46,145 nt of DNA from an uncultured virus (IMG/VR IMGVR_UViG_3300042894_007218) (taxonomy: Duplodnaviria; Heunggongvirae; Uroviricota; Caudoviricetes), in the IMG/VR virus record IMGVR_UViG_3300042894_007218; one strand, 5' to 3'. Positions 1 to 15,145 of this stretch are shown here, piece after piece. The first letter of the stretch is position 1. The number at the start of each line of letters is the position of its first letter. The position numbers and the translations under genes are program-made. Below the pieces are notes generated by a model. The model saw only the letters and a list, made by a program, of their open reading frames with translations. It ran no database searches and was not told the origin of the DNA.

Positions 1-234
1 ATACATTTATCTTTACCTATCTATATTAGTGGTTTGGATATTTTCAACTCAAATATAGATAATTTTAAATATATTAGTATAGAGGTAACTCAAAATATCC
101 AACATGAACACACAGATTTAAGTATTGTCAAAGAATGGTTTGAAAAAAGAAGGTACAAACTAATTGAAAGAAAATCAGTTGATAATGTCGGACAATTGTT
201 TTTTGTTAAGAAAAGAAAATATACTAAAAAGTAA
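1..234 (+). CDS. hypothetical protein, 5'-truncated by window edge
   Basis: Frame is open from base 1 to the TAA ending at 234. Confidence 0.6.
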   Translation: MHLSLPIYISGLDIFNSNIDNFKYISIEVTQNIQHEHTDLSIVKEWFEKRRYKLIERKSVDNVGQLFFVKKRKYTKK

Positions 235-457
235 ATTCATCAAATCTTGAAATGTGATTTTCACTGACTTTTTCAGGAAGACCTTGATGTTTAGTTTTGG
301 CAAAATCTCTCAATTTTTTTAAACCCTTTCTTTTCCCTTTTTTCAAAAATGACTTTGCTAATTTCTTTACTGATGGTGATGCATCTTCCATTTCGCCTTT
401 TGCCCAAGCGTATGCCATGCCCATTAATCTTTGTTGTTTTTTTGAAGTTGATGGCAT
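224..457 (-). CDS. DUF3008-like small basic protein
   Basis: MPSTSKKQQRLMGMA...LRDFAKTKHQGLPEKV resembles the DUF3008 pattern (recalled). Confidence 0.6.
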   Translation of the reverse strand: MPSTSKKQQRLMGMAYAWAKGEMEDASPSVKKLAKSFLKKGKRKGLKKLRDFAKTKHQGLPEKVSENHISRFDEFTF

Positions 458-502
458 GGAAAGTATAAATTTTTATTATATATAAAAAAATAATTTAATA
501 TT

Positions 503-715
503 ATGTCAAAATTGAGAAACGGTGGAATTATTTCCAAAGAAGAATATGTAGGTAAAACATTACAAGAAGCAACTAAATACGCAGAAGATGGTGGTTTTGT
601 TACTAGAATAGTTGAAACAGATGGTCATGCAAAAATGTTAGATATGTCTGTAAATCCAAAAAGATTAAATTTTAGAGTAAATAAAGAATTTGTTACCGAC
701 GTATTTGGTGGATAA
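503..715 (+). CDS. small protein, peptidase inhibitor I78/potato-I-like
   Basis: YVGKT...MLDMSVNPKRLNFRV...VTDVFGG resembles the I78 pattern. Confidence 0.5.
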   Translation: MSKLRNGGIISKEEYVGKTLQEATKYAEDGGFVTRIVETDGHAKMLDMSVNPKRLNFRVNKEFVTDVFGG

Positions 716-731
716 AATAATTTAATAAAAA

Positions 732-763
732 TTTGGTAGATTTAAAACATTTTACTAATTTTG
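732..763 (+). promoter_or_regulatory. Bacteroidota sigma-A-type promoter for leader 1/tRNA operon 1
   Basis: TTTG-N20-TAATTTTG. Confidence 0.75.
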
Positions 764-820
764 TATAAGATAATGACAAATAATTAAAAAGAGAGTTTAA
801 CAATTCAATATATAACAACA

Positions 821-922
821 ATGAGAGCAATTCGCACACATAAGCATTTTAGTAAATCGTCGAAGTGGTTTAGTCACTCCGGTTCGGTACTAAAAGAGTA
901 TTGCTCAAATTTAGAAGTGTAA
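821..922 (+). CDS. attenuator leader peptide 1 (MRAIRTHKHFSKSSKWFSHSGSVLKEYCSNLEV)
   Basis: 33-aa ORF; R/H/K/F/S/W run matches downstream tRNAs; GGTTCGG (881-887) complements the terminator arm. Confidence 0.85.
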   Translation: MRAIRTHKHFSKSSKWFSHSGSVLKEYCSNLEV

Positions 923-947
923 TAACTTATAAAAGACAATATAATTT

Positions 948-980
948 AACCCGAACCTCGAAAGAAGTTCGGGTTTTTTT
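948..980 (+). terminator. intrinsic terminator (attenuator 1)
   Basis: AACCCGAAC/GTTCGGGTT stem plus T7 run. Confidence 0.9.
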
Positions 981-995
981 ATTAATAAAAAAATT

Positions 996-1068
996 GGAAT
1001 GGTGGCAGATTAGGTAATTGCGCTGGACTGAAAATCCAGAGGAGTGGGCTCGATACCCACCCGTTCCA
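996..1068 (+). tRNA. tRNA-Phe(GAA)
   Basis: Cloverleaf; ctgga CT GAA AA tccag. Confidence 0.9.
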
Positions 1069-1078
1069 CAAAAAATAT

Positions 1079-1154
1079 GATCTCGTAGCTCAGCAGGTTT
1101 TAGAGCACCTCACTTTTAATGAGGGGGTCGTGGGTTCGAGCCCCACCGGGATCA
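1079..1154 (+). tRNA. tRNA-Lys(TTT)
   Basis: cctca CT TTT AA tgagg; TTCGA T-loop. Confidence 0.95.
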
Positions 1155-1156
1155 CT

Positions 1157-1229
1157 GTGAATGTAGCTCAATTGGTAGAGCGCTTGATTGTGATTCAAGA
1201 GGTAGCGGGATCGTAACCCGTCATTCACC
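1157..1229 (+). tRNA. tRNA-His(GTG)
   Basis: cttga TT GTG AT tcaag; C73. Confidence 0.9.
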
Positions 1230-1233
1230 AAAT

Positions 1234-1304
1234 ACGTCATACAGACAAGGTGTCGGTCAGGTCTCCAAAACCTCGACGGCTGGGTTCAATTCCTAGATGG
1301 CGTG
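1234..1304 (+). tRNA. tRNA-Trp(CCA)
   Basis: aggt CT CCA AA acct; acceptor acgtcat/atggcgt. Confidence 0.8.
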
Positions 1305-1309
1305 CTAAT

Positions 1310-1382
1310 AGTTTCATCGTCTAACCGAATAGGACACACGGCTACGAACCGTGAAGTGAGAGTTTGAGTCTTTCTGAAACTA
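1310..1382 (+). tRNA. tRNA-Arg(ACG)
   Basis: cacgg CT ACG AA ccgtg; atypical T-loop TTTGA. Confidence 0.8.
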
Positions 1383-1390
1383 CAAAATAA

Positions 1391-1477
1391 GGAGAGTTGG
1401 TAGAGTGGTTGATTACACCGGTCTTGAAAACCGGAAAACTTGAAAGGGTTTCCAGGGTTCGAATCCCTGACTCTCCT
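1391..1477 (+). tRNA. tRNA-Ser(TGA)
   Basis: ccggt CT TGA AA accgg; long variable arm. Confidence 0.95.
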
Positions 1478-1488
1478 CTAAATTTTAC

Positions 1489-1570
1489 GGAGAATAAACT
1501 AATCTGGTGATTAGAGCCGCCTGCTAAGCGAGTTGCACGTACATTTGTGTGGGGTTCAATTCCTCTCCGC
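1489..1570 (+). tRNA. tRNA-Ser(GCT), 3' acceptor strand shortened (possible pseudogene)
   Basis: cgc CT GCT AA gcg with long variable arm; only a few nt follow the T-arm before the convergent gene's stop. Confidence 0.6.
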
Positions 1571-4417
1571 TTATACTTTTGGTTTTTCAACAATAAATTC
1601 ACCATTAATATCATATAAACCACTACTTAAGATATAGTCATCGTGTCTTTCGCCAATTACTAACCAGGATATTTCATCAGATGAATTCGAATTAATACAG
1701 TTTATTTGTAGTTTATTTCCAATTACGATGCCTTTTACTGCATCCCATCCAGTCTCATTTGAGGTGAAACATTGGAAGTTTTTATTTAATGCAAGTAATG
1801 TACCTTCTGTCATATTAAATTGCTCATCTAAATTAATTTCAATAAATCCATTTACTAACTGTGATTTACCTCTGTATATGTTATTTGCCTGTGGTGCTTC
1901 TACAAAAGAGTGTAATAAAGTATGTGTTTCTTTTAGTTGTGGAAGAGGGTGGTCAATTTGAAATGTACCCGCTGCCTTTGAAAGTGTTCCATTAACTCTC
2001 AAATTATATGCTGTATATATACCACTTCCGCCCACTGTTGGTACTGTTCCGGAACCACCTGTCATATAAAATCTTATTTGGTCATTTTCGGAAATATCAC
2101 CAAATGTCAATAAGCCATCACCATCATCTCTTAAATTAAAATATGATCTGGTAGATGTTAGCATCTCAAAATAAGTTGGGTATTGAGTAATACTTGATGT
2201 TCCTGCTGTTATTGTTCCTGAATTATTGAATTTAATTTCTGAGCCGTTAGAGTTGGTTGTAAATTCAATATTTTTTTCACCGGTTGTATAGCCAAATTCT
2301 GCTATAGTACTTGTTCCTTGTATTCTTAAAAAGTTACCTCTTAGTGCAGTCGCAGATGCTGTTCCTACAACGGTAAAGTCATATGTAGGTGTATTTGTTT
2401 TTATACCAACTCTGTCTGTTGAAGCATCAGCAAAGAATAAATTCGCATTAGTATCTCCGCCAATTCTAAAGTCAGTGTTCGCGTCACCTGAGTTATTAAA
2501 TACCGAAGTTCCACTTTCGACAACTATTCCATAGTTTATATTTCCTCCTGTTGTAGTAACTTTTAATCCATAATTGGTTCCAGTAGTCGATGTGGTTGTG
2601 ACTGCTGAAATTGCATAATTATCACCTGAGGCAGTTCCGTTAGTATTTTGACTTACTAATGTATAAGCATGAGTTGTTTGTGTGTTTGATATTGAGAATT
2701 TTGCATTTGATGAATATCCACCAACTCCTGCCACATTAGTTGATGCTTGTGTTGATAAAAGATTTCCATCTAATGTTCCTTCAATTCTGAAATCATTACT
2801 ACCATTTGAATTATTAAATATGGCAGATCCTCTAACGTCTAATGTTGCCAGTGGTGTGTTTGTTCCAATACCAATACTATCAGTTGACGCATCAGCAAAG
2901 AATAAATTCGCATCAGTATCTCCTTCTATTCTAAAGTCTGTGTTTGCATCACCTGCTTCATTGAATATTGATGTTCCGGTATTTACAACAACTCCATAAT
3001 TGATTGAAGATCCACTTGTTTGTACAAAAAGTCCATAGTTTGCTGATGATTGAGTTGATGAAACTAAACTAAGAAGACCATAAGATGATGAAGTTGTTTT
3101 TGAACTATTATTGAAATAACCAGCATAAGAAGGATCTGTTGTATTTGCTGCTGTTGTTGCAACCCATGCAAAAACAGCTTTGTCTCCTGTTGAATAAACT
3201 GGCCCATTGCCAACTACGGCCCAAAGTGCATTATTTGCAAAGCTTCCGTTATTTACTTGTGTATAAAGACCTGTATTAGTTGAAGCGTTCCCTAAATTAG
3301 AGATATAAGATCCCCAGTTATTGGTACCAAACGTATCATTACTTACTCCTGTTCCAATTGTTACATAATTACCATAATAGCTACCTGCTGTGCCAGATGT
3401 TATTGTTGTATACATTCCGTAGGTTGTTGTAGATAATGTTAAAGTGGTGTAGACACCATAACTATTTGTGTTACTACCAGTATTTCTCGCATAGATTGCG
3501 AAAGTAGTACTGGCTGTTGATGTGCCGATGTTTCCAAGAACTCCGACATCACCACTTCCAAAACCAATAGAGGATCCAATATTTCCACTGATTGCTATGC
3601 TGTAAGTACCGCTTGAAATTTCAGAATGTATACCTGTTCTTATAGTTGTATTATTTTTTCTGATATACAACTGAGTATCGGAAGATGAAAGAGTTGTACC
3701 AATAAAAACATTTGTTCCGTTATCATAAATAAGTGAATTTGTCAAATCTGTAGAAGATGACCATTTTGGTAAATAATTTGTTGTTCCTGTACCTGTGACT
3801 ACTGAAGTTGGTATATCACTGACAAGTGCCATAGTTCCACCATTATTTGGCATTACAATTGACCAGTTTGCTGTTAATGTAGAAGTGAATAATCTCATTG
3901 TATATGAGCTACTTGTAAATCCAATGTAAGATGGGGTTGGTAAAATAATATTATTTACACCAGATGAATTTCCAACCGCTAAAACTTGAGATAGCGATGG
4001 TGTTGTTCCGCCTACTTGCCAAGTTGCGTTACCAGAAGCATCGGATGTAAGAACATATCCAGATGTCGCACCATCTGTTATTGTTATGTTTGAAGTGGTA
4101 ATGCCACCAACTCTTAGATTAGAATATGAGTCAATATTTACAGAGCCTATTACTGTGTGGTCATCGTTTGTTCCAATAAGTGCGAAAGTGTCATTTGTTT
4201 CATCCCATATAAAAGCCTGAGTTAGACCAGTTCCTCTGGTAAACATAATTCCTTCATCTAATAAAGGAGCACCTGATTGGCTATGACCTAAAGCTATTAT
4301 AGTATCTGATACAACTAAACTTGTTGTATAAATCGAAGAAGCAGATCCTAATATTGAAAAAGAACCTGTTACTAACAAATCACCCCATATTTCCGAACTT
4401 CCGTATATTTTTGGCAT
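1571..4417 (-). CDS. virion fibre/structural protein with internal repeats
   Basis: 948 aa, S/T/G-rich; three 'DFRIxG..DxNL' repeats; C-terminal FQIDHPL...HSFVEAP domain. Confidence 0.7.
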   Translation of the reverse strand: MPKIYGSSEIWGDLLVTGSFSILGSASSIYTTSLVVSDTIIALGHSQSGAPLLDEGIMFTRGTGLTQAFIWDETNDTFALIGTNDDHTVIGSVNIDSYSNLRVGGITTSNITITDGATSGYVLTSDASGNATWQVGGTTPSLSQVLAVGNSSGVNNIILPTPSYIGFTSSSYTMRLFTSTLTANWSIVMPNNGGTMALVSDIPTSVVTGTGTTNYLPKWSSSTDLTNSLIYDNGTNVFIGTTLSSSDTQLYIRKNNTTIRTGIHSEISSGTYSIAISGNIGSSIGFGSGDVGVLGNIGTSTASTTFAIYARNTGSNTNSYGVYTTLTLSTTTYGMYTTITSGTAGSYYGNYVTIGTGVSNDTFGTNNWGSYISNLGNASTNTGLYTQVNNGSFANNALWAVVGNGPVYSTGDKAVFAWVATTAANTTDPSYAGYFNNSSKTTSSSYGLLSLVSSTQSSANYGLFVQTSGSSINYGVVVNTGTSIFNEAGDANTDFRIEGDTDANLFFADASTDSIGIGTNTPLATLDVRGSAIFNNSNGSNDFRIEGTLDGNLLSTQASTNVAGVGGYSSNAKFSISNTQTTHAYTLVSQNTNGTASGDNYAISAVTTTSTTGTNYGLKVTTTGGNINYGIVVESGTSVFNNSGDANTDFRIGGDTNANLFFADASTDRVGIKTNTPTYDFTVVGTASATALRGNFLRIQGTSTIAEFGYTTGEKNIEFTTNSNGSEIKFNNSGTITAGTSSITQYPTYFEMLTSTRSYFNLRDDGDGLLTFGDISENDQIRFYMTGGSGTVPTVGGSGIYTAYNLRVNGTLSKAAGTFQIDHPLPQLKETHTLLHSFVEAPQANNIYRGKSQLVNGFIEINLDEQFNMTEGTLLALNKNFQCFTSNETGWDAVKGIVIGNKLQINCINSNSSDEISWLVIGERHDDYILSSGLYDINGEFIVEKPKV

Positions 4418-4432
4418 ATTATCTTATTTATT

Positions 4433-6766
4433 TTATCCTATTATTACAATTTTTATATTTGATAGGTTTTGAGTAAACCTAACCGCAACTGAGTTACTAT
4501 CTGAAATACTTACATCTCCGATTATCATAAATCCGGATGAATCATATGTTTGAACAATTACCTCATCTGTTCCAAGTGAATGTGTTATTGTTTGTGAAAC
4601 AGATGCTGTGAAGCTGGCTACTGTAGCGTATTTTGAAGTAGATGTTCCAACTTGTGAATCAACATATCCTTTTGTAACAAGTGAGTAAGTTGTGAAGTTA
4701 GCTGAGTAATCATCATAATAAACAAGTCCTTTTGATGAAAACTCATCTTCGATAATCATTGTGTTATTTGAAGATCCATCACCTAGTCCAATAGTCTGAT
4801 TTGATTTATAAATCTGTATGATGCTTTGGCTTAATCCATTATTTATGTACATAAACGAACCATTTGTATTTGCCTCAAATACTGAGTTATTTCCAGTAGA
4901 ATCTTGGTAAAATAAAGAAATGTTAGTAATACTTGAATTTAGTTGTGAGAAATTAAAACCATCCGTTGTTCCTAAAGTAGTTCCATTTCCTAAGAACACG
5001 TAGTCATATTCAGTTGAGTTTGAAGCAGTAAGGCTTATCTGATTTGCTCCTTCAACTTTGAAATCGAAATTGTTACCATTTATTAAAGTGTTTTGTGAAA
5101 GTGTTCCGCCTAAATAAATTTGGTCTGAAATAATTTGTAATCCGTTTCCGACATTCACATCTAATGTTACTGTACCTGAAGTTCCACCTCCACTTAATCC
5201 GTCACCAGCAACAACTTCAGAAACAAAGTCATTATTGATAGAATTAATTGTTGACCAAATAGATGCTGTTCCTAAATCAACATAATTTTTATCAACAAGT
5301 GAGTAAGTAACAAATGTTGATGAATAATCGAAGGCATATTGTAGACCCTCACCATTTGACACTGATATTGATGCTGAGCCAACTCCTATATTCAAACTTA
5401 AATTACTTACTAAAATTATATCTTCATCATCTAATTGTATATAAGCTTTATTTAAATTTCCATTATCGGTTGAAATTACTACGGTATCTGGCGCATAGTC
5501 TAAATTAATTTGACCACCACCTCTTACTGAATATAGAGACGAGCCGGTTCCCATTTCAATTGAATTATAACCAGTCCAATTACCGAGTGTTAAAACATCT
5601 TCAAGATTTTGATACTCCGCTGGACTTGATGTCCAATTTAAATTACCTAGACCATCAGTTACCATATAACTACCCGATGCGCCATCAACGTTTGGTAACG
5701 TATATTTGTTATTGATATTTACATACTCTCCTAAAACAACTGAGTTTGTCAATGAAGCTATTAAATTCTCACCACCTAATATAACAGCATTATGAACACC
5801 TATATCAACAAAACTATTTTTCGTTGAAATTAAAACTGGTGATGCGTCAACAGCTGGTGATGTAAATGATGTAAGTGTATCTGTAACTATTAATCCGTTT
5901 GTAGTTAAGGTTGTCGAACTTGATGATGTTATAAGTGCTATTAAACTATTACTGTTTTCTAATATCAGATTATTTGTATCTGTGAAACTTAGACTAGCAT
6001 CACCTAAAGAACCTCTAAGTTTTTTTGTATCCTGAATATAAGTATCTGGAATATAAACTGAGTTATTTGCAATTGCTGATTGACCAACACCACCGATAAT
6101 AACACTATTGATAACATTTGAGTTAAAGCTGGAGTTTTGTGAGCCAATAAATACAGCATTACTTGATGTGTTTGTACTTGTGACTGAAGTTCCAATATTA
6201 GATTTTAGTAGTATCTCATCTGATGTATTAAAAATTCTTAATCTGATTTCTGAATTAGAAAAAATATCTACATCAGTTGATAATTTTACATAATTTGAAC
6301 CATTTGTAATATCAATAGTATTTCCTAATGAGTTAACTAAACTCATAGTGGCATTAGTAAGAGATAAATAATTGTAACCAGTTGTCAAATAAACTGAACT
6401 TGTGAGTGAGTTATAATCAAAATATAAAGCAGATAAACCGTTATTTGATAAAATAGAACTGGATGTTCCCATATAAATTGTACTGGCAGATGCCATATCA
6501 ATAGTTCCTGAATTCCCAACTAAAATAGAAGTAGCTGTTCCCATAAGAATGGAGTATGTCTCTGAATCATTTGATACTGATAAGACTTGAGCTAATGACT
6601 GAGTTCCACCTGAAGAACCACTTCCAGTTCCGCCAATAGGAGTAATAACTCCGGCTGAGTCTTTTTGTTTTAAAATACCATCATCATCATATGCAACTAA
6701 AAATCCTGTAGAAGGAGTAGCCGCTGTAGTTAAAGACATGGTATAACCAAAAATAAGTGAGCTCAT
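4433..6766 (-). CDS. putative virion structural/fibre protein
   Basis: 777 aa, S/T/N-rich; 'SLAQVL..N' motif shared with neighbour; 'VAGDGLSGGGTSG' and C-terminal 'ITHSLGT' motifs. Confidence 0.65.
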   Translation of the reverse strand: MSSLIFGYTMSLTTAATPSTGFLVAYDDDGILKQKDSAGVITPIGGTGSGSSGGTQSLAQVLSVSNDSETYSILMGTATSILVGNSGTIDMASASTIYMGTSSSILSNNGLSALYFDYNSLTSSVYLTTGYNYLSLTNATMSLVNSLGNTIDITNGSNYVKLSTDVDIFSNSEIRLRIFNTSDEILLKSNIGTSVTSTNTSSNAVFIGSQNSSFNSNVINSVIIGGVGQSAIANNSVYIPDTYIQDTKKLRGSLGDASLSFTDTNNLILENSNSLIALITSSSSTTLTTNGLIVTDTLTSFTSPAVDASPVLISTKNSFVDIGVHNAVILGGENLIASLTNSVVLGEYVNINNKYTLPNVDGASGSYMVTDGLGNLNWTSSPAEYQNLEDVLTLGNWTGYNSIEMGTGSSLYSVRGGGQINLDYAPDTVVISTDNGNLNKAYIQLDDEDIILVSNLSLNIGVGSASISVSNGEGLQYAFDYSSTFVTYSLVDKNYVDLGTASIWSTINSINNDFVSEVVAGDGLSGGGTSGTVTLDVNVGNGLQIISDQIYLGGTLSQNTLINGNNFDFKVEGANQISLTASNSTEYDYVFLGNGTTLGTTDGFNFSQLNSSITNISLFYQDSTGNNSVFEANTNGSFMYINNGLSQSIIQIYKSNQTIGLGDGSSNNTMIIEDEFSSKGLVYYDDYSANFTTYSLVTKGYVDSQVGTSTSKYATVASFTASVSQTITHSLGTDEVIVQTYDSSGFMIIGDVSISDSNSVAVRFTQNLSNIKIVIIG

Positions 6767-6829
6767 TAAAATAAATTTATTTCTTATTCTATATATTATT
6801 TTTGAAATTATCTTTTTAGAATTGAAACA

Positions 6830-6855
6830 AAAAAACCACTCTTTTGAGTGGTTTG
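6830..6855 (-). terminator. intrinsic terminator
   Basis: aaaccactc/gagtggttt stem with A-run (T-run on minus strand). Confidence 0.7.
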
Positions 6856-6858
6856 AAT

Positions 6859-7221
6859 TTAATATTTTGGTATTTTCATATCTGATGATATTTCAATTTT
6901 GAATCCAAAACCAGTATCTTCATCTGTAGAATATTTAACTTCTGAATCATAGCCATTGTTTCCGTTAAAAGTAATTGGATTTGGTCCATTTACTCTTTGT
7001 TGTCTTCTCATTATTTCATCATTTCTTTTTGCTTCTTCTTGAGCAACTATTTCTTCAAATGTTAGTTCCTTTTTCTGAGGCACTGGTTGATTTGGAATCG
7101 AAGAATATTGTTGAGGTTCATGTCCATATTTTCTTAAGAGTTGTTCAGCTTCCCAACCAGTAATTTCTCTTTCTGATTCAACGTGTTGTTGGTCTACTAT
7201 TCTTGCTTGTGGTCTTTCCAT
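6859..7221 (-). CDS. hypothetical protein
   Basis: ORF in a minus-strand operon. Confidence 0.7.
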   Translation of the reverse strand: MERPQARIVDQQHVESEREITGWEAEQLLRKYGHEPQQYSSIPNQPVPQKKELTFEEIVAQEEAKRNDEIMRRQQRVNGPNPITFNGNNGYDSEVKYSTDEDTGFGFKIEISSDMKIPKY

Positions 7222-7229
7222 AACTTTTG

Positions 7230-7640
7230 CTATTTTTTGATTGAGACGATAATATCTATTTCGTCTCTTCTATTTGCTTTTATTTTTATATCTGCATTGG
7301 CGGAAAATTTATCAATAATCCTAATTGTAGCAACTTCAATTTCGTCATACAATTCTGACAATTTTTCATTTTTCATCTTTAGAAATTCTAAATTAGTTTC
7401 AACTTTTCCTATATAAAGGTTCGATCCAATAGGTTGAGGCAGGGTAATAATTTTACCCAGACCTATATTTAAAATATAAATTAAATCTGGATTATGAGAT
7501 AGAGTGCGTTCATATGAATCCGCAATGTGTATTTCTTTATTAACTTCAAAGTTTGAGTTTTCTAAAATATCTAAAAAACAATCTTCTAAATATCTCAAAT
7601 CTTCATCACTACTTTCAAATATCTTTTTTAAATGTTTCAT
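7230..7640 (-). CDS. hypothetical protein with MKHLKKIFES N-terminal motif
   Basis: ORF; shared N-terminal motif. Confidence 0.75.
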   Translation of the reverse strand: MKHLKKIFESSDEDLRYLEDCFLDILENSNFEVNKEIHIADSYERTLSHNPDLIYILNIGLGKIITLPQPIGSNLYIGKVETNLEFLKMKNEKLSELYDEIEVATIRIIDKFSANADIKIKANRRDEIDIIVSIKK

Positions 7641-7654
7641 GTATTATATATTAA

Positions 7655-8221
7655 TTATTGTTTATATCTGCGTTGTAAAATAATCAGTTGAACTTCAGCC
7701 TCAATATAGGTATCGAATCTATAATCTTCACCGGTATTCAAATCACATATTTCTATCCAATTCAATTGATTGTTTTCACCAATTGTTCCATCTATTATAG
7801 ATATTGTTTTTGATCCAGCATCTACTCTGGCTTGTAAGCATTGAGAACCAGTTGATTTATTGAGATGCCAATCTTGCCACTCTAAATCTTTCCAAAATTT
7901 AATATTTTTAGATTTTAATTCTTCTAAAAAATCAATTTTAATAAGTGATAAGTAAATACTATCATCTAAAGTAATCTGATTGTGTCTGATTTTTTCAACT
8001 TCTTTTGAAACATTAAGAATAGACCATCCAATATCTTCTAATGCGCTTCTAACAGCCTCTATATCATCTTTATCACATTCTGTTTTTCTGTTTAAATCAC
8101 AAATTAATATACCATATGAACTTTCATAAACAATCTCAGGTTCATTATCTGTTAAGATATACATGTATTCTAAAATATTAGAATGAGATTCAAAAATTTT
8201 ATATGATTTTAAATGTTTCAT
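7655..8221 (-). CDS. hypothetical protein with MKHLKSYKIFES motif
   Basis: ORF; shared N-terminal motif. Confidence 0.75.
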   Translation of the reverse strand: MKHLKSYKIFESHSNILEYMYILTDNEPEIVYESSYGILICDLNRKTECDKDDIEAVRSALEDIGWSILNVSKEVEKIRHNQITLDDSIYLSLIKIDFLEELKSKNIKFWKDLEWQDWHLNKSTGSQCLQARVDAGSKTISIIDGTIGENNQLNWIEICDLNTGEDYRFDTYIEAEVQLIILQRRYKQ

Positions 8222-8685
8222 AATCTTCTTAATTGTATTGCATTTCCACCCTGTCTTACTGAAAATCCTTCTGGTGGATTCATATCTAAATACCTTTTAT
8301 ATATTCTGGTTCTGGAGGTAACAAAGTGTTTTTCTGTATCTTTTGCTAATCCAACAAAGAATATTTCTTTAGTCCAATTACATCTTTTTGTAAAATCATT
8401 TAAGATATCTCCAAAAACTGTTTGAAGAACTCTATACGGATTTACATTTACAATTTTATAAGCAGTATAAGAACCTTCATCTTCTACATAATAAAGTAGT
8501 TCATAAACATTACTTAACTCGCCTGGCTTTCTTACAGGAATGTTTTTAAACTCAACTAAATATCGATTTCCAATGACATCTTCAAATTTATATTTGATTA
8601 AAAAAGGATTATCAGATTCTAATTCAAAATGATAAGATTGAACTTCTTCTAATAAAAATTGAAAAAAATGTGACAAGTATTTCAT
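8218..8685 (-). CDS. hypothetical protein
   Basis: ORF preceded by AATATATA; overlaps the next start. Confidence 0.75.
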   Translation of the reverse strand: MKYLSHFFQFLLEEVQSYHFELESDNPFLIKYKFEDVIGNRYLVEFKNIPVRKPGELSNVYELLYYVEDEGSYTAYKIVNVNPYRVLQTVFGDILNDFTKRCNWTKEIFFVGLAKDTEKHFVTSRTRIYKRYLDMNPPEGFSVRQGGNAIQLRRL

Positions 8686-8769
8686 TAAAAGTATATATTA
8701 ATTGAAAAAATTCTTTAATTTATAAGAAAAGAGAAAACTTTTTTATATATACACATACAATTAGAACAT

Positions 8770-8842
<73 letters not shown>

Positions 8843-8861
8843 CTAAAAAAATTAAAAAAGT

Positions 8862-8933
8862 ATGAATAAATTAGCAACATATTATTACGAAGCCGAGGGT
8901 TTAAACCCAGTCGGACGAGTTTGTGTGTTGTAA
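8862..8933 (+). CDS. attenuator leader peptide 2 (MNKLATYYYEAEGLNPVGRVCVL)
   Basis: YYYEAE run precedes tRNA-Glu and tRNA-Tyr; antiterminator 8910-8924. Confidence 0.85.
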   Translation: MNKLATYYYEAEGLNPVGRVCVL

Positions 8934-8952
8934 CGATTTGATTACTTTAAAC

Positions 8953-8984
8953 AAACCCAGTCCGATTTTGGTCTGGGTTTTTTT
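8953..8984 (+). terminator. intrinsic terminator (attenuator 2)
   Basis: AAACCCAG..CCGA/TTGG..CTGGGTTT plus T-run. Confidence 0.85.
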
Positions 8985-9007
8985 ATTTTAAAAATATTTT
9001 AAAAAGA

Positions 9008-9039
9008 TTTGGTGTATTTGAAAAGTTACCTTATCTTTG
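9008..9039 (+). promoter_or_regulatory. Bacteroidota-type promoter between attenuator 2 and tRNA-Glu
   Basis: TTTG-N20-TATCTTTG. Confidence 0.7.
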
Positions 9040-9094
9040 TAAAACAAAAGAGGTAAATATAAATCCAAGTAACCCCTTGGTTTTTTACTAACTT

Positions 9095-9166
9095 GGTCCC
9101 ATCGTCTAACGGTTAGGACGTTAGGTTTTCATCCTAGAAATCGGAGTTCGATTCTCCGTGGGACTA
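9095..9166 (+). tRNA. tRNA-Glu(TTC)
   Basis: ttagg TT TTC AT cctag. Confidence 0.95.
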
Positions 9167-9177
9167 CAAAATTTATT

Positions 9178-9258
9178 GGAAGGTGGCAGAGTGGTTAAAT
9201 GCGGCAGACTGTAAATCTGCTCTCTTACGAGTACGGGGGTTCGAATCCCTCCCTTCCA
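9178..9258 (+). tRNA. tRNA-Tyr(GTA)
   Basis: gcaga CT GTA AA tctgc; long variable arm. Confidence 0.95.
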
Positions 9259-9314
9259 ACAAAATTTAAAAGAGGAAATAAACTTTTTATATATAATAAC
9301 ATAAAATAGAAACA

Positions 9315-9398
9315 ATGAAAAATTTAACTAACATAGGGGCAGTAATTATAGCGATAGGCGCGGGGCGTTTTATCGATAGACTGAGTTATGTTATGTAA
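9315..9398 (+). CDS. attenuator leader peptide 3 (MKNLTNIGAVIIAIGAGRFIDRLSYVM)
   Basis: ATA x3, GGG x2, GGC, GCA, GCG x2 precede Ile(TAT)/Ala/Gly tRNAs; antiterminator 9378-9387. Confidence 0.85.
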   Translation: MKNLTNIGAVIIAIGAGRFIDRLSYVM

Positions 9399-9419
9399 AT
9401 TTTGACTTTACATATATTT

Positions 9420-9451
9420 AAAACCCAGTCTCGAAAAGACTGGGTTTTTTT
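9420..9451 (+). terminator. intrinsic terminator (attenuator 3)
   Basis: AAAACCCAGTCT/AGACTGGGTTTT plus T-run. Confidence 0.9.
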
Positions 9452-9455
9452 ATTT

Positions 9456-9536
9456 CGGCAAGTACCGTTGGTGTCTTATACACACTATACACGTAGCGGG
9501 AAGTTGAAAACGTGGGTTCGAATCCCACCTTGCCGA
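9456..9536 (+). tRNA. atypical tRNA-Ile(TAT)-like RNA lacking a canonical D-arm
   Basis: Acceptor cggcaag/cttgccg; T-arm gtggg TTCGAAT cccac; gtgt CT TAT AC acac. Confidence 0.6.
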
Positions 9537-9542
9537 CAAATT

Positions 9543-9616
9543 GGGCCATTGGTGAAGAAGGCTATCATACCTGGTTTGCACCCAGGAGTCACGAGTTCGA
9601 GGCTCGTATGTGTCCA
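9543..9616 (+). tRNA. tRNA-Ala(TGC)
   Basis: cctgg TT TGC AC ccagg; G3:U70 present; 1-nt bulge in acceptor. Confidence 0.85.
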
Positions 9617-9622
9617 CAATTT

Positions 9623-9710
9623 GCAGGTATCGCCTAGTTGGTCGATGGCTCCGGATTTCCAATCCGGTCAGATAAGGTTCACAACGTGGGTTCGAATCCC
9701 ACTACCTGCT
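9623..9710 (+). tRNA. tRNA-Gly(TCC) with enlarged variable region
   Basis: ccgga TT TCC AA tccgg; U73. Confidence 0.85.
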
Positions 9711-9767
9711 CAAACCTTGCCAAGATTGGGGTCGTGAGTATTCTCCACAAAAATTAATATATACTAT

Positions 9768-9950
9768 ATGACAATTTTTAAAAACAAATTAGACGGAAAG
9801 CTCTACACTATTTATAAGAATAGTGATGGAACACTTACTGCATTTCCTTCTGGTAAGGTTGTAGATGAGATGAGTATATTAAAAAATTGTAAGCTCGAAG
9901 ATTTTTTTGTTTACAAAATTGAACAAAATAAAATTAAAGGTTTTATATAA
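9768..9950 (+). CDS. hypothetical protein
   Basis: ORF after AATATATA motif. Confidence 0.6.
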   Translation: MTIFKNKLDGKLYTIYKNSDGTLTAFPSGKVVDEMSILKNCKLEDFFVYKIEQNKIKGFI

Positions 9951-9966
9951 AAAATTAAAAGAAATT

Positions 9967-10098
9967 ATGAAGATAGTAATAGAAGGTGAAATTAAGGGTA
10001 GTAAAGAAAATTTTAGGAATTTGACCACTGATACAAAAATTAAATTTGTATCTAAGCTAATGAAAAATGTAAAAAAAAGAATTAAGTCCAGAAATTAA
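9967..10098 (+). CDS. small hypothetical protein (ATG start MKIVIEGE)
   Basis: ORF followed by terminator hairpin at about 10084-10110. Confidence 0.45.
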   Translation: MKIVIEGEIKGSKENFRNLTTDTKIKFVSKLMKNVKKRIKSRN

Positions 10099-10136
10099 CT
10101 GGACTTTTTTATAAATAGAAAGAAACAAAAAAATTT

Positions 10137-10871
10137 ATGAAAAACTTATTATTATTTATATTTACCTTTATCTCAATCCTATCTTATTCACAAACAATTC
10201 TTTCTTGGAATATTCAGAATTTAGGAGAAACAAAGTATAAAAGAGATTCAGTTATTACACAAATTACAAATGTTATAAAATCTTCTAAAGCAGACATAGT
10301 AGCAATACAAGAAGTAATCACTGGACCTTATGGTGATTCTTGTATTATCAAAATATCTAAACTACTTAATTATAATTATACTATATCTGCTAGAACTACA
10401 GGAGATGGGGCTGAAAGATATGCTTTTCTTTATAAAAAAGATATAACCCTAAACTGGTCAAAGTTAGATGCTAACTTACAAGACTCACTAAATAGAGAAC
10501 CATTTATGGCTTCTTTTAAATACAATAAAAAAGATGTTGTTGTAAGACAAGTTCATTTAGTTCCTACAAGTAAAAATCCTCAACAAGAAGTAGAAGATAT
10601 GTACTGCTATAAAGATGGTATTATTTGTGGTGATTTTAATTTAACTTGTAAACATCTAATCTATATTCCGTTATTGAAAAGTTTCAATTCACCTCTTTGT
10701 GGACAGGGAACTTCTCTAAAAAGAGATGGGACAGTTAGTGAAAACAACTATGACCATTTTTTAGTAGATAAAACTTATAAGATTGTTGAAAGTAAAGTGT
10801 TCATTTATCCGTACAAAGGAAATAGAAATACATTATCTGACCATTTGCCTATACTTATTAAATTAAATTAA
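10137..10871 (+). CDS. endonuclease/exonuclease/phosphatase (DNase I-like) family protein with signal peptide
   Basis: SWNIQN, DIVAIQEV, ERYAFLY, GDFN, YDH, SDHLP motifs. Confidence 0.9.
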   Translation: MKNLLLFIFTFISILSYSQTILSWNIQNLGETKYKRDSVITQITNVIKSSKADIVAIQEVITGPYGDSCIIKISKLLNYNYTISARTTGDGAERYAFLYKKDITLNWSKLDANLQDSLNREPFMASFKYNKKDVVVRQVHLVPTSKNPQQEVEDMYCYKDGIICGDFNLTCKHLIYIPLLKSFNSPLCGQGTSLKRDGTVSENNYDHFLVDKTYKIVESKVFIYPYKGNRNTLSDHLPILIKLN

Positions 10872-10882
10872 TATATACTCCT

Positions 10883-11446
10883 ATGAAGTATCTAAAGAGA
10901 TTTAACGAAAATATATCAGTTTATGATCCTAAATGGGAAGAATTGCTTCCTGATACTATTACTGTTTTGAAAGGTCAAGACCACGGTATAGATAAGTGGG
11001 TATATAGTAAGGGGAATATTATGTTAAACTCCGATATGTTACAAATAACATATGATATAGATGCTGATATGGCACCTGATACATTAGAAATAGATATCTA
11101 TATGGTAAGAGATACTGCTTTTGATAAAAGCGGTGATTCTACGACTGTTGTAAAATCTGGCACTTTTGAATATGATGATAACATAGGAGAAAAATTGCCA
11201 AATTTAAGACTTACTGTAGACATCACTTTTGGTGATGAGATGGCATGTGAATTTACAATTGATAAAGTTAATGGTGTAAGACTATTTCAAGATACCACTT
11301 ATGGTTCTAAATTTGATCCTTCGAATACCATTTTTGCGCTAAGTGATGAAAGTCTGAAAAAATTTGTTGATTTTTTAAATAGATTCAATCACGGTGTCAA
11401 TCTAAAATTAGATGATTTCAATTTTTTAAAACAAAATAAAAATTAA
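10883..11446 (+). CDS. hypothetical protein, paralog of 26148-26909
   Basis: MKYLKRFNE motif; blocks shared with 26148-26909. Confidence 0.8.
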   Translation: MKYLKRFNENISVYDPKWEELLPDTITVLKGQDHGIDKWVYSKGNIMLNSDMLQITYDIDADMAPDTLEIDIYMVRDTAFDKSGDSTTVVKSGTFEYDDNIGEKLPNLRLTVDITFGDEMACEFTIDKVNGVRLFQDTTYGSKFDPSNTIFALSDESLKKFVDFLNRFNHGVNLKLDDFNFLKQNKN

Positions 11447-11457
11447 TCCTATAAAGC

Positions 11458-11580
11458 ATGAATAGATTTATTGAGATAGTATCTGAATATCCATTTACTT
11501 GTTTGTGGCTATCAGTAATTATTATTTCTATTATTTCTATGATAAGTGAATCAATTAAGAAACGTAAAAATAGAGATTAA
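11458..11580 (+). CDS. small single-pass membrane protein (40 aa)
   Basis: Fills the gap; hydrophobic core plus basic tail; stop overlaps the next ATG. Confidence 0.55.
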   Translation: MNRFIEIVSEYPFTCLWLSVIIISIISMISESIKKRKNRD

Positions 11581-12236
11581 TGGAATTATTTCATTTCGAT
11601 ATTGAAACCGCTGGAAAATGGCGAGATTTTGATGAATTTGTGGAAAACGATAAAAGAGGATCTGACCTATTTAAATCTAAATGGGAAAGAATGAGATGGT
11701 CTGAAAAGTATAAAGACCTAAATGAAGCTTATTTAGATAATTCTGGTATCATATCAGCTTATGGAAGGATTGTTTGTATCTCTTTTGGGTATATTGACAA
11801 TGATGGTCAAAAAAGAATTTCTTCATTCTATGGTGATGATGAAAAAGATATTGTTGAATCATTTAACAATTTACTATCTAAGATAGAAAAAAAAGCTTTC
11901 AATCTTTCTGGTTTTAGAATAAATCATTTTGATATTCCTTGGGTTTTACACAAGTGTCACAAATATGGCATTAAACCCGCCAATATTATTTATGTATATG
12001 ATAAAAAACCCTGGGATATGAGAATTACAGATATGTCTGATGATTGGAGGCAAAAGTTTGCTTGGGCGTTCTCATTTGATGAAATGTGTTATGAATTAGG
12101 TGTAGATTCTCCAAAGCAAGAAATGAATGGTTCTGAAGTTCATAAGTGTTTTTGGAATGGTGAATTAGATAAAATAAAGAGATATTGTGAAAGTGACGTA
12201 TCTGCTTCTATTGATGTTTCTTTAAAGTTATATTAA
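11580..12236 (+). CDS. DEDD 3'-5' exonuclease (PolB-proofreading-like)
   Basis: FDIET, N.FDIP, YCESDV motifs. Confidence 0.85.
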   Translation: MELFHFDIETAGKWRDFDEFVENDKRGSDLFKSKWERMRWSEKYKDLNEAYLDNSGIISAYGRIVCISFGYIDNDGQKRISSFYGDDEKDIVESFNNLLSKIEKKAFNLSGFRINHFDIPWVLHKCHKYGIKPANIIYVYDKKPWDMRITDMSDDWRQKFAWAFSFDEMCYELGVDSPKQEMNGSEVHKCFWNGELDKIKRYCESDVSASIDVSLKLY

Positions 12237-12282
12237 ACATCCGGTGTCTATACAAATATATACTTGTAAATTATAATATATT

Positions 12283-12453
12283 ATGCCAGCAAAAGATAAA
12301 ATGTTTTCTATTAGAATTCCGGAAAAACTTCTTAATGAATATAGAGAATTCTGTGAAGAAAACTCAATTAATATTTCTTCTAGATTAAGAAAGTTTATTG
12401 AAAGAGACTTAGAAAATTGGAGAGCTAAAAAAATTCAACAAAAGAAAAATTAA
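12283..12453 (+). CDS. ribbon-helix-helix DNA-binding protein (56 aa; not in ORF track)
   Basis: MPAKDKMFSIRIPEKLLNEYREFCEENSINISSRLRKFIE is a CopG/Arc-like pattern. Confidence 0.7.
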   Translation: MPAKDKMFSIRIPEKLLNEYREFCEENSINISSRLRKFIERDLENWRAKKIQQKKN

Positions 12454-12461
12454 TTTAAACA

Positions 12462-12488
12462 AAAAAACCCTCGATTATGAGGGTTTTT
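12462..12488. terminator. bidirectional terminator
   Basis: AAAAACCCTC/GAGGGTTTTT between convergent genes. Confidence 0.8.
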
Positions 12489-12490
12489 AT

Positions 12491-13591
12491 TTATGTAAGA
12501 ATTGATGTAATTGCTTGTTTTCTTATCTCCGTCATCTGAACACCTTGCTCTAATCCTTTTAGGAATATTTGTGCCACTTCAGATAATCCAACTAAGTGTG
12601 AGATGCTAGACCAAATTCCCCAACTAGCAAGTCCAATCATGAATGCTGCATAAATAATATTGGCTATTTTTTCTCTAAATTTCTCATTTCTTAATTTACT
12701 GCTTGGTTTTGATACAGCACCTAAACCTTTTAATACGGCTCTTATTGGCGATGTATATAAACTGTGTAGTTGATGACCTTTTTCTTTTAACCAGTTTCCA
12801 AAATCTGAGCCAAATAATTTATCTCTATATTTTTTCAGTCTACCAATCTCCATATCTATCACCTCTTTACTAATTTTTGGATTACCCTTAGAGTTCTTAT
12901 TGGCTGCTTCTTTTTCAGCCTTTTTCTTAAGTTCTTCTTCTGGTACAACTCTATCACCTTTATCTATTCCACCAAGTTCTCCAAGTGGTTTATGTTCATG
13001 TGGTTGGTGGTCAAATTCTAATTCGGTATTTCCTAACGATTTAGCTAAATTATTAGAAACTTCAAACCAGTTATTATCAAAATAAGCGTTTCCTAAAAAC
13101 CTTACCTGTATTTTTTTTCCATCAGCAATACTTTTCTTCATTTTTTTATAAGTTGATATTGCTTCATTCAACATCTTAAGATTTTTCATAGCTTTATCAT
13201 CTAAGTTGATACCAAATTTTCTTTTTAGAAAATTAGCACCACTACCAACTGCTTCCAAACAAGCGGGTATCAATGAAGCTATAGTAATTGCTAATAAAAT
13301 TCCGGCTTCTTCATTGGTTTTTTTATCTTCACTTTGTTCTTGTTCTTTATCACTAACTGGTTTGTCTAAATCAATTTTGCCTTTTGTTTCCGGAAAATGT
13401 TTTGCAATTAAATCTTCAATTTTTTTCTTTTCTTCTTCAGGCATTTCTTCTATAATTTCTTCTTCTGATTGTGCTTGTTTAGGAGCTATTGATGAAACTT
13501 CATCAGCCTCGAATAAAAATCCAATTTCTTCAAGTAGTAGTTCTAAACTTCTAGATTCATGAAACTTTTGATATTCTTTAATAATTTTCAT
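12491..13591 (-). CDS. hypothetical protein with hydrophobic segments and MKIIKEYQKFHES motif
   Basis: 366-aa ORF. Confidence 0.8.
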   Translation of the reverse strand: MKIIKEYQKFHESRSLELLLEEIGFLFEADEVSSIAPKQAQSEEEIIEEMPEEEKKKIEDLIAKHFPETKGKIDLDKPVSDKEQEQSEDKKTNEEAGILLAITIASLIPACLEAVGSGANFLKRKFGINLDDKAMKNLKMLNEAISTYKKMKKSIADGKKIQVRFLGNAYFDNNWFEVSNNLAKSLGNTELEFDHQPHEHKPLGELGGIDKGDRVVPEEELKKKAEKEAANKNSKGNPKISKEVIDMEIGRLKKYRDKLFGSDFGNWLKEKGHQLHSLYTSPIRAVLKGLGAVSKPSSKLRNEKFREKIANIIYAAFMIGLASWGIWSSISHLVGLSEVAQIFLKGLEQGVQMTEIRKQAITSILT

Positions 13592-13640
13592 TATTTTAGT
13601 TTTATTTTTTTAATATATATTAAAACTTTAAACCTAAAAA

Positions 13641-14072
13641 ATGAAATATATTGCTAAATTTGAAAATATATCTATGTCAAAAAACAGAGTTGATGAGATA
13701 GAAATCGAACAAAATGTAGAAAAGTATTTGAGTGGTTTGTCAGATTACGATATTAACAAACTTAAAATTGATTTAGAGATTTTGGCAAAAAAACACAATC
13801 TTAATTTTGATGACTTACAGGATCCTGAAATAGTTAAGCAAATACTTACAAATACAAATGAGAGTTTCAAATCTTGGTTGGCTGATAATTGGTATTACTT
13901 AGTTGATAAAATAAGCAAATATGGTAATATATTTGCTGCTGTAACTTTTGTAGGTACTATGTTATCTCATTATTTGACTGGTAATGAATCTTTGACTGGT
14001 GTAAAAGTAGCTGTTGTTGCATACACAATATCAAGCATAGTTGGTCTTCTTAAAAAATTAAAAGAAGAATAA
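13641..14072 (+). CDS. hypothetical membrane protein (MKYIAKFEN motif)
   Basis: Two C-terminal hydrophobic helices. Confidence 0.75.
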   Translation: MKYIAKFENISMSKNRVDEIEIEQNVEKYLSGLSDYDINKLKIDLEILAKKHNLNFDDLQDPEIVKQILTNTNESFKSWLADNWYYLVDKISKYGNIFAAVTFVGTMLSHYLTGNESLTGVKVAVVAYTISSIVGLLKKLKEE

Positions 14073-14093
14073 AGCAAAATAATTTCAACAAAA

Positions 14094-14125
14094 TTTGGTA
14101 GAACTGAAACTTTTATCTAATTTTG
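14094..14125 (+). promoter_or_regulatory. Bacteroidota-type promoter for leader 4
   Basis: TTTG-N20-TAATTTTG. Confidence 0.75.
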
Positions 14126-14183
14126 TATAAAATAATGACAAAAAATTAAAAAGAAAGATTTAACTTTCAATATATACAAAACA

Positions 14184-14300
14184 ATGAAAACGAATTTGAC
14201 AAATATGACGATGAACCTAACACTCAATGTGGTGAATATTACGTTATGTAATATTAGAACTTCTGAGGGTTCCTTCCTATTTAGTAAATTTGTCTTATAA
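14184..14300 (+). CDS. attenuator leader peptide 4 (MKTNLTNMTMNLTLNVVNITLCNIRTSEGSFLFSKFVL)
   Basis: Codons 3-26 are only T/N/L/M/V/I/C/R, matching the downstream tRNAs; antiterminator 14262-14272. Confidence 0.88.
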   Translation: MKTNLTNMTMNLTLNVVNITLCNIRTSEGSFLFSKFVL

Positions 14301-14328
14301 AGTGTAAATTTATAACTAAATATAAAAG

Positions 14329-14365
14329 AACCCTCGGATAGAAAAATCTGAGGGTTTTTTGTTTT
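14329..14365 (+). terminator. intrinsic terminator (attenuator 4)
   Basis: AACCCTCGGAT/ATCTGAGGGTT plus T-run. Confidence 0.9.
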
Positions 14366-14370
14366 ATACT

Positions 14371-14442
14371 GGAGTAGTAGCTTAATGGTGAAGCAATCGG
14401 CTGTTAACCGATAGATTACAGGTTCGAGTCCTGTCTACTCCG
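14371..14442 (+). tRNA. tRNA-Asn(GTT)
   Basis: atcgg CT GTT AA ccgat. Confidence 0.95.
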
Positions 14443-14448
14443 CTAAAT

Positions 14449-14521
14449 AGTCTCCTCGTTCAACTGGACAGGACATCGCTCTTCTAAAGCGAGGATATGG
14501 GTTCGAATCCCGTGGAGACTA
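14449..14521 (+). tRNA. tRNA-Arg(TCT)
   Basis: tcgct CT TCT AA agcga. Confidence 0.9.
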
Positions 14522-14527
14522 CTAATT

Positions 14528-14598
14528 ACTCTGATGGCGTAAAGGTAGCGTATCTCTTTTACATGGAGAAGGCAGTGGTTCGATACCACTTCGGAGTA
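14528..14598 (+). tRNA. tRNA-Val(TAC)
   Basis: tctct TT TAC AT ggaga. Confidence 0.9.
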
Positions 14599-14606
14599 CA
14601 AAAAAT

Positions 14607-14681
14607 TGGAATATAGCTCAGTTGGTTTAGAGCGCCGATCTGATACGTCGGAGGTCACTGGTTCGAGCCCAGTTATTCCAA
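14607..14681 (+). tRNA. tRNA-Ile(GAT)
   Basis: ccgat CT GAT AC gtcgg. Confidence 0.95.
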
Positions 14682-14688
14682 CAAACAG

Positions 14689-14771
14689 GCACCTGTGGTC
14701 GAGTGGAGTAGAAATACGGAAGGCACTGGATTGCAAACCCAGTCACGGGGGTTCAAGTCCCTCCAGGTGCT
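14689..14771 (+). tRNA. tRNA-Cys(GCA) with enlarged D-loop
   Basis: ctgga TT GCA AA cccag; U73. Confidence 0.85.
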
Positions 14772-14778
14772 CAAATAT

Positions 14779-14850
14779 GCTGATGTCGTATAATGGTCAT
14801 TACATTGCCTTTGTAACGCAAATATGTGGGTTCGACTCCCTCCATCAGCT
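14779..14850 (+). tRNA. tRNA-Thr(TGT)
   Basis: ttgcc TT TGT AA cgcaa. Confidence 0.85.
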
Positions 14851-14856
14851 CTAAAA

Positions 14857-14928
14857 TGTCTCGTAGTTTAATGGGAAAACGTTACCTTGACATGGTAAAG
14901 AGAGTGGGATCGTTACCCACCGAGACAA
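14857..14928 (+). tRNA. tRNA-Val(GAC)
   Basis: ttacc TT GAC AT ggtaa. Confidence 0.85.
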
Positions 14929-14953
14929 CAAAATAATGGATGGTGATTGAAAG

Positions 14954-15024: not shown

Positions 15025-15056
15025 ACTCTTCAAAGCTTTCCTCCGTTATTTTATTT

Positions 15057-15139: not shown

Positions 15140-15145
15140 CAAAAT

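Follow-up and report, generated by a model that had tools for sequence, protein, structure and literature searches.

The 46,145-nucleotide (nt) stretch of uncultured-virus DNA analysed here (IMG/VR record IMGVR_UViG_3300042894_007218; hereafter the window) contains near its start an element, positions 732-980, that we read, with a probability of roughly 70%, as a ribosome-mediated (leader-peptide) transcription attenuator gating a cluster of seven transfer RNA (tRNA) genes at 996-1574. An earlier note, made from the letters of the sequence, had proposed an attenuator of this kind at this place. The proposal is supported by a short open reading frame (ORF), by the correspondence between its codons and the tRNAs that follow, by an intrinsic terminator, by covariation in an antiterminator helix that competes with it, by a predicted protector hairpin and by promoter-like elements upstream.

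The leader ORF runs on the + strand from ATG at 821 to TAA at 920-922 (33 codons, peptide MRAIRTHKHFSKSSKWFSHSGSVLKEYCSNLEV). Codons 5-20 (833-880) read CGC ACA CAT AAG CAT TTT AGT AAA TCG TCG AAG TGG TTT AGT CAC TCC, as the earlier note had given them, and sequence and ORF list agree on this; we call them the sensor codons. Cluster 1 (996-1574, ARAGORN and Rfam) follows on the same strand and comprises Phe(GAA) at 996-1069, Lys(TTT) at 1079-1155, His(GTG) at 1157-1229, Trp(CCA) at 1234-1305, Arg(ACG) at 1310-1383, Ser(TGA) at 1391-1478 and a Ser(GCT)-like gene at 1495-1574. The seven tRNAs of the earlier note are thus five solid genes, detected by ARAGORN at default settings and by Rfam at gathering score, and two divergent, sub-threshold ones, Trp(CCA) and Ser(GCT), which appear with lowered ARAGORN thresholds only. 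Trp(CCA) is found at the equivalent place in most relatives.

The match between leader and cluster is far above background. Under strict wobble rules (G34 reads C/U, U34 reads A/G, A34 reads U/C/A), the downstream tRNAs read 14 of the 19 leader codons that precede the switch segment described below as region 2. Codon background and control both come from the 29 long ORFs of the window: such codons have a share of 20.1% there (0.201; binomial P=7e-7), and none of the 9483 contiguous 19-codon control windows reaches 14/19.

Relatives of the leader were found by a pattern search with its core (FSKS..WFS), which returned 101 matches, 11 in viral and 90 in metagenome stretches, amounting to 83 distinct records, 82 of them short ORFs; the family is widespread in lake and marine metagenomes. 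Orthologs are 28-39 codons long (76 measured). Downstream sequence of 300 nt or more is available for 69; in 67 of these a + strand tRNA lies no more than 250 nt behind the stop codon, and the tRNAs found within 700 nt (n=69) are His (64), Phe (61), Trp (51), Lys (47), Arg (6) and Ser (5). Two large phage genomes have orthologous leaders before matching clusters. In the two large relatives a separate Ser/Arg-rich leader (MKTINNTSKSSSRSSS..., MKTTIKNTSSRSRSSKS...) precedes the Arg(ACG) and Ser tRNAs, which in the window are fused to cluster 1. The ORF upstream of the element, 503-715, has relatives in 4 viral loci, only 2 of which include the leader.

Because the search pattern fixes codons 10-13 and 16-18, these add no evidence of their own. 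Informative are codons 7-9, 14 and 15, which were free to vary: in 45 distinct ortholog 5' parts, 200 of 225 cases fall within {F,K,H,W,S,R}, the set of amino acids served by the cluster, and the swaps occur among chemically unlike members of that set. Codon 14 is S in 23 orthologs, F in 10, N in 6, H in 5 and T in 1; codon 15 is K in 32, S in 12 and F in 1. The occurrence of an Arg codon also goes with the position of Arg(ACG) (5/5 vs 6/16, P=0.035), a comparison among related sequences that is a hint only.

Beyond the sensor the constraint changes in kind. The block GGTACT..GTATTG lies in frame 0 in 55 of 76 sequences and in frame 2 in 19, including the window, and the peptide tails differ by frame (FGTE.VL vs GSVLKEYC). 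Since the same block is read in two frames, it is RNA that is conserved there, and not a peptide. This conservation, together with a small invariant hairpin inside the sensor, could suit a switch independent of translation, in which a protein, a small molecule or a tRNA binds the leader RNA in T-box-like fashion and the ORF is incidental. We nevertheless think this quite improbable. In 76 of 76 orthologs the ORF begins with ATG, remains open and stops 17-45 nt before the terminator arm despite indels; the 5' part of the leader holds a single frame, with its variable codons staying inside the tRNA set; and in Rfam searches of the whole window neither the T-box covariance model nor any other riboswitch family matched at gathering score. 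The hairpin itself, TAAATCG/TGGTTTA at 853-872 within the sensor codons, lies inside the search pattern, which makes its conservation uninformative; it could be a polymerase pause hairpin.

Downstream of the ORF, the predicted terminator is formed by a 5' arm AACCCGAAC (948-956, within region 3, 948-957) and a 3' arm GTTCGGGTT (967-975, within region 4, 967-980) that leads into seven T at 974-980. The hairpin 948-956/967-975 (3:4) has a predicted energy of -15.5 kcal/mol. Across an alignment of 73 distinct sequences its helix is paired in 100% of cells, with compensatory change at 8 of 9 pairs and 111 cells changed on both sides.

The same 5' arm has a second partner within the leader ORF. GGTTCGG at 881-887, the core of region 2 (879-895), is complementary to CCGAACC at 951-957 in region 3, exactly as first described. 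The best duplex of the terminator 5' arm with upstream RNA joins 880-888 to 950-958 at -12.8 kcal/mol, an energy matched by 13 of 500 dinucleotide shuffles. In the alignment this antiterminator helix (columns 19-27 with 114-122) is paired in 84.7% of cells, 5 of its 9 pairs have changed on both sides (62 cells), and its pairing and covariation score is reached by 0 of 500 shuffles, counts that are not probabilities given the relatedness of the sequences. The register as given beats all six slid registers. Moreover, the stem classes keep the match while changing its letters (GGTTCGG/CCGAACC, GAACTTGG/CCAAGTTC, GATTCGGT/ACCGAATC), with the in-ORF segment at the same place, and swapping arms between classes weakens the duplex, except for two single-sequence classes; in one example the energy is -10.7 with the class's own arm and -4.1 with another's.

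These observations bear on another alternative, an ordinary leaky terminator behind a small protein-coding gene, with constitutive read-through and with codon match and complementarity arising by chance or as by-products of the peptide. In its favour, short ORFs are abundant in AT-rich DNA and hairpin plus T-run sites are common, with 20 in positions 1-16000 against 6.9 expected. But covariation between 881-887 and 951-957 has no role in a plain terminator, the codon match occurs in none of the 9483 windows from long ORFs, the peptide tail is not conserved and is written in two frames, and the layout is repeated at five clusters of the window and in relatives. We find this explanation scarcely credible.

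Region 2 has a further set of predicted partners in region 1 (847-868), the 5' strand of a protector that overlaps the Phe-Ser-Lys-Ser-Ser-Lys-Trp codons in minimum-energy folds. The pairs are 860-864/883-887, 866-868/879-881 and 847-854/888-895, and the hairpin alone (1:2) is worth -11.9 kcal/mol. A protector at 861-886 had been drawn by eye in the earlier note; a hairpin over the sensor codons is indeed predicted, but its minimum-energy fold does not pair GTG with CAC as that drawing did. Joining Phe-Ser-Lys-Ser codons to region 2, the protector is predicted in all 54 distinct orthologous segments (mean z -3.0, 43 of 54 below -2, the 5' strand lying inside the fixed search pattern), and the mean probability, across them, that region 2 is paired with upstream RNA is 0.77. 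RNAalifold applied to the full leader alignment returned the terminator and the small in-pattern hairpin only, with no protector and no antiterminator. A long-range pairing of 825-831 with 900-906, present in the minimum-energy fold of the window, is by eye not kept in relatives and was dropped.

The antiterminator is competitive: folded as isolated elements, the 2:3 domain has -19.4 kcal/mol and 3:4 has -15.5, so that the outcome named in the earlier note as refuting the proposal did not occur. When a 30-nt ribosome footprint is masked on any A-site codon from 839 to 866, the nascent RNA (821-962) still makes all 7 antiterminator pairs; with the footprint at codon 869 it makes four, and at 872-878 none. 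The sensor stretch as originally delimited holds in part, in that only stalls at codons 839-866 would free region 2, and stalls at 869-878 would mask it.

Candidate promoters lie upstream of the leader and were looked for in vain behind it. P1 (732-763, + strand) consists of TTTG at 732-735, a 20-nt spacer and TAATTTTG at 756-763, and by its motifs is a promoter-like element of the Bacteroidota sigma-A type. The motif TAnnTTTG stands 46-81 nt 5' of the ATG in 68 of 71 orthologous upstream regions; it is given as the sigma-A -7 box of Flavobacterium in one study (PMC9723704). A second block, P2 (787-814, + strand), comprises AAAAGAGAG...TTCAATATATA and ATATATA at 808-814, 13 nt 5' of the ATG. 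ATATATA recurs in 70 of 71 orthologs, in 62 of them 12-14 nt 5' of the ATG, and P2 probably acts as a promoter. By eye, no promoter-like motif is present between the leader stop codon and tRNA-Phe, including the 15 nt that separate the end of the T-run (980) from tRNA-Phe (996), so the tRNAs depend on read-through of the terminator.

A promoter-like block similar to P2 also stands directly before tRNA-Met 8770 and before the leader at 9315, where the motif AAAGAG...CTTTTT.TATATA occurs (8700-8745 and 9262-9300), and a looser form of the motif precedes the suppressor tRNA described at the end of this text (39215-39265). This block may be a phage-specific promoter.

From these elements we propose the following course of events. 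Transcription starting at the promoter-like elements 5' of 821 would have to pass the intrinsic terminator at 948-980 before reaching the tRNA genes, and the 33-codon leader would be translated as RNA polymerase proceeds. A ribosome slowed at the His, Lys, Phe, Ser, Trp or Arg codons (about 833-866) would cover region 1 (847-868), leaving region 2 (881-887) free to pair with 951-957 once that segment is made; the terminator stem would then be blocked and the tRNA genes transcribed. If reading were fast, the ribosome would proceed to the stop codon at 920-922, between regions 2 and 3, region 2 would re-pair with region 1, the hairpin 948-956/967-975 would form, and transcription would end in the T-run. 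Because the products are the tRNAs that read the sensor codons, such a circuit would be a negative feedback on decoding capacity.

A number of points weigh against this attenuator. Folded as nascent RNA without a ribosome, the leader already has the antiterminator as its minimum-energy fold (minimum free energy -24.7), and 2:3 beats 1:2; termination in the unstalled state must therefore rest on folding order and kinetics plus a ribosome separating regions 2 and 3, presumably one at or near the stop codon. That stop codon lies 25 nt 5' of the terminator arm (17-45 nt, median 27, in relatives), and a ribosome terminating there leaves both region 2 and region 3 exposed, which sets it apart from the E. 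coli trp leader. Region 2 would be masked by stalls at the final three or four sensor codons (869-878). At the 5' end, codons 2-6 lie mostly outside the tRNA set in the 45 orthologs (Thr, Ala, Ile, Asn), and Ser codons are retained in relatives whose Ser/Arg tRNAs follow a second, separate leader. Trp(CCA) and the Ser(GCT)-like gene score 25 and 33 bits against the tRNA-Sec model, under the Rfam gathering score. The pattern-fixed codons and the relatedness of the aligned sequences, both noted above, count on the same side. A leader of this type senses charged tRNA and by itself cannot separate a shortage of tRNA from a shortage of amino acid. Leader translation, termination and regulation are, finally, predictions from sequence and fold analysis. 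The leader stretch is contained in lake-water metagenome runs, and RNA libraries hold one contig equal to window 755-954 and another, from a relative, that spans leader, terminator and tRNA-Phe; being assembled contigs, they carry no information on transcript starts, ends or levels, DNA carry-over into these libraries is possible, and we do not use them as support.

The arrangement is not confined to cluster 1. Four further units in the window have the same order of parts, a short ORF, a hairpin with its T-run and a group of tRNAs, and each leader abounds in the amino acids of its own cluster (Tyr/Glu; Gly/Ala/Ile; Asn/Leu/Thr/Val/Ile/Cys/Arg; Gln/Pro/Asp). In the unit at 8862-8985 the ORF (8862-8933) encodes MNKLATYYYEAEGL... 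(YYYEAEG) and Glu and Tyr tRNAs follow; at 9315-9450 (ORF 9315-9398) the peptide contains ...IGAVIIAIGAG... and precedes a tRNA-like gene read as Ile(TAT), then Ala and Gly. The leader at 14184-14361 (ORF 14184-14300, MKTNLTNMTMNLTLNVVNITLCNIRT...) is rich in N, L, T, V, I, C and R and stands before tRNAs for Asn, Arg, Val, Ile, a likely Cys, Thr, Val, Arg, Leu and Leu, and that at 26982-27131 (ORF 26982-27074, ...NQQPQDQDP...) before Asp, Pro and Gln tRNAs. A unit's own tRNA set decodes 14/19 of the pre-switch codons at 821, 5/15 at 8862, 8/19 at 9315, 20/24 at 14184 and 8/20 at 26982. Two of the units are weak by this measure, the value for 8862 being reached by 322 of 9599 control windows and that for 26982 by 19 of 9454. 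Pairing each of the five leaders with its own cluster gives the highest total among the 120 possible assignments. Antiterminator complementarity is uneven across the five: the number of shuffles, of 500, that reach the duplex is 0 for 14184, 7 for 8862, 13 for 821, 74 for 9315 and 123 for 26982. An automated unit finder recovered 3 of the 5 window units, and in loci of the two relatives it recovered 4 (L003) and 2 (L004); these counts are partial.

Some details of these units deserve mention. Behind unit 8862, another TTTG/TAnnTTTG promoter-like site (about 9008-9040) and a small hairpin precede tRNA-Glu. The tRNA-like gene at 9456-9536 (+) is aberrant, with 35.6 bits in Rfam and the anticodon loop CTTATAC; we take it as likely Ile(TAT) because a tRNA-Ile(TAT) occupies the matching place in both relatives. 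An aberrant gene at 14689-14772 (+), with an oversized D region and the loop TTGCAAA, is called Ser(ACT) by ARAGORN at low threshold and is likely a Cys tRNA.

The comparison among leaders also bears on a variant in which the switch is the same but what it senses is general translation speed, or the coupling of transcription and translation, and not particular tRNAs, codon choice being secondary; the signal could then be infection stage, host shut-off or a ribosome-targeting defence. Such a variant would accommodate the points that region 2 would be freed by a ribosome delayed on region 1 for whatever reason, that codons 2-6 of this leader, like many in the other four, fall outside the leader's own tRNA set, and that 26982 shares half of its pre-switch codons with the set of the 14184 cluster. 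It does not account for five leaders that divide the amino acids in step with their clusters, to the point that the own pairing is the best of 120 assignments, nor for free codons that change only within the tRNA set (the 200 of 225 cases above). In relatives, moreover, Lys tRNAs with a hairpin of their own follow mini-ORFs rich in Lys codons (MKTKLKYKR and METKRKR, at L003 3137-3166 and L007 3809-3832), each with the hairpin 3' of it and then three or four Lys tRNA genes. We consider sensing of general speed unlikely.

If the attenuator at 821 is codon-specific, the wider proposal would be a codon-resolved tRNA thermostat, in which at least five operons of the window are each induced by stalling at the codons that their own tRNAs read. 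We hold this extension tentatively, at somewhat less than even odds.

The mechanism itself is of a known type. The 1:2, 2:3 and 3:4 model of trpL is the textbook attenuator, and multivalent leader peptides regulate enterobacterial amino-acid operons, as in thrL (Thr, Ile) and in ilvL and ivbL (Ile, Leu, Val). With these the phage element shares a short leader, translated there and probably here, a run of sensor codons, several amino acids per leader, protector (here predicted), antiterminator and terminator helices that share strands, and an intrinsic terminator directly 5' of the regulated genes. It differs in that its targets are tRNA genes and not biosynthetic enzymes, with a product that would act directly on the sensor; in that it samples six amino acids in 16 codons; in that its stop codon lies well 3' of region 2; and in having Bacteroidota-type promoters and no sequence relation to Thr_leader. 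No Rfam leader family matches at gathering score in the window, and between 780 and 1600 the only leader-type match is Thr_leader over 902-983, at 22.9 bits against a gathering score of 55 (E 0.08).

Closer in purpose is the pheM leader, which attenuates the E. coli pheST (phenylalanyl-tRNA synthetase) operon: there, too, part of the translation machinery is regulated through ribosomes that stall at codons for its own amino acid. In that case the product is a synthetase, the amino acid one and the genome cellular, whereas the phage element concerns tRNAs and six amino acids. The T-box, for its part, works without translation, using a specifier codon to bind uncharged tRNA directly. It resembles the phage element as a tRNA-responsive terminator/antiterminator switch before translation-related genes, and differs from it in that the phage element has a conserved ORF.

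What is new, then, is the target, tRNA genes, and the proposed feedback logic. Control of tRNA genes is exerted at their promoters (growth rate, stringent response) and by processing; to our knowledge they are not known to be controlled by the decoding capacity of their own products. A literature full-text search, in whose coverage subscription journals and supplements are not included, found no description of tRNA genes under leader-peptide attenuation. For amino-acid operons, clues of leader-peptide attenuation in a Flavobacterium are reported in PMC9723704.

An attenuator placed before tRNA genes closes a direct loop, in which slow reading of a codon raises the supply of the tRNA that decodes it. 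If the thermostat reading is correct, a tRNA set would be replenished only once the infected cell became less able to decode its codons, for example through host tRNA degradation, cutting by anticodon nucleases or a phage codon demand beyond the host supply. With such a self-regulating counter-measure, tRNA genes would for the first time be seen under the control of their own decoding activity. An attenuator before tRNA genes would account for the dosing of tRNAs by large phages that have dozens of them and for the sorting of their clusters by amino acid, and would provide a testable link between phage tRNAs and the depletion or cleavage of host tRNAs. A further use of the element could be as a compact sensor of how fast particular codons are translated. 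As the family is widespread and its covariation strong, it offers a ready model of attenuation for hosts without Shine-Dalgarno sequences, a trait of the host phylum according to PMC6847099.

As a whole, the window is AT-rich, phage-like DNA with 23 tRNA genes according to ARAGORN and 25 tRNA matches in Rfam; they are clustered, and every one lies on the + strand. Among deposited phages, just two show extended DNA similarity to it, both uncultured, with genomes of 634,780 and 642,428 bases. Cluster 1 meets a convergent ORF of 948 codons on the - strand, which ends at 1571.

The later part of the window contains several other RNA genes. A GOLLD RNA at 37804-38206 (+; Rfam RF02032, 285.7 bits, E 1e-80) lies just 3' of tRNA-Met 37254-37327 and 5' of an intron-bearing tRNA-like gene at 38406-38513. 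Upstream of these, a tRNA-like gene at 36963-37049 (+) is found at low ARAGORN threshold only; its variable arm is long, its anticodon loop, apparently of 6 nt (TTGTAA), is Tyr-like, and a TTTG/TAnnTTTG promoter-like site stands directly 5' of it, without a leader. A tRNA with a CTA anticodon, of the amber suppressor type and with a 30-nt intron, is located at 39273-39377 (+). Stop-codon recoding was considered for it and set aside: opening TAG adds little coding length, and coding under code 11 is already dense. Between two of the tRNA genes, an ORF of 234 codons on the - strand (38513-39217) is Cys/His-rich by eye, which suggests a nuclease-like insertion.

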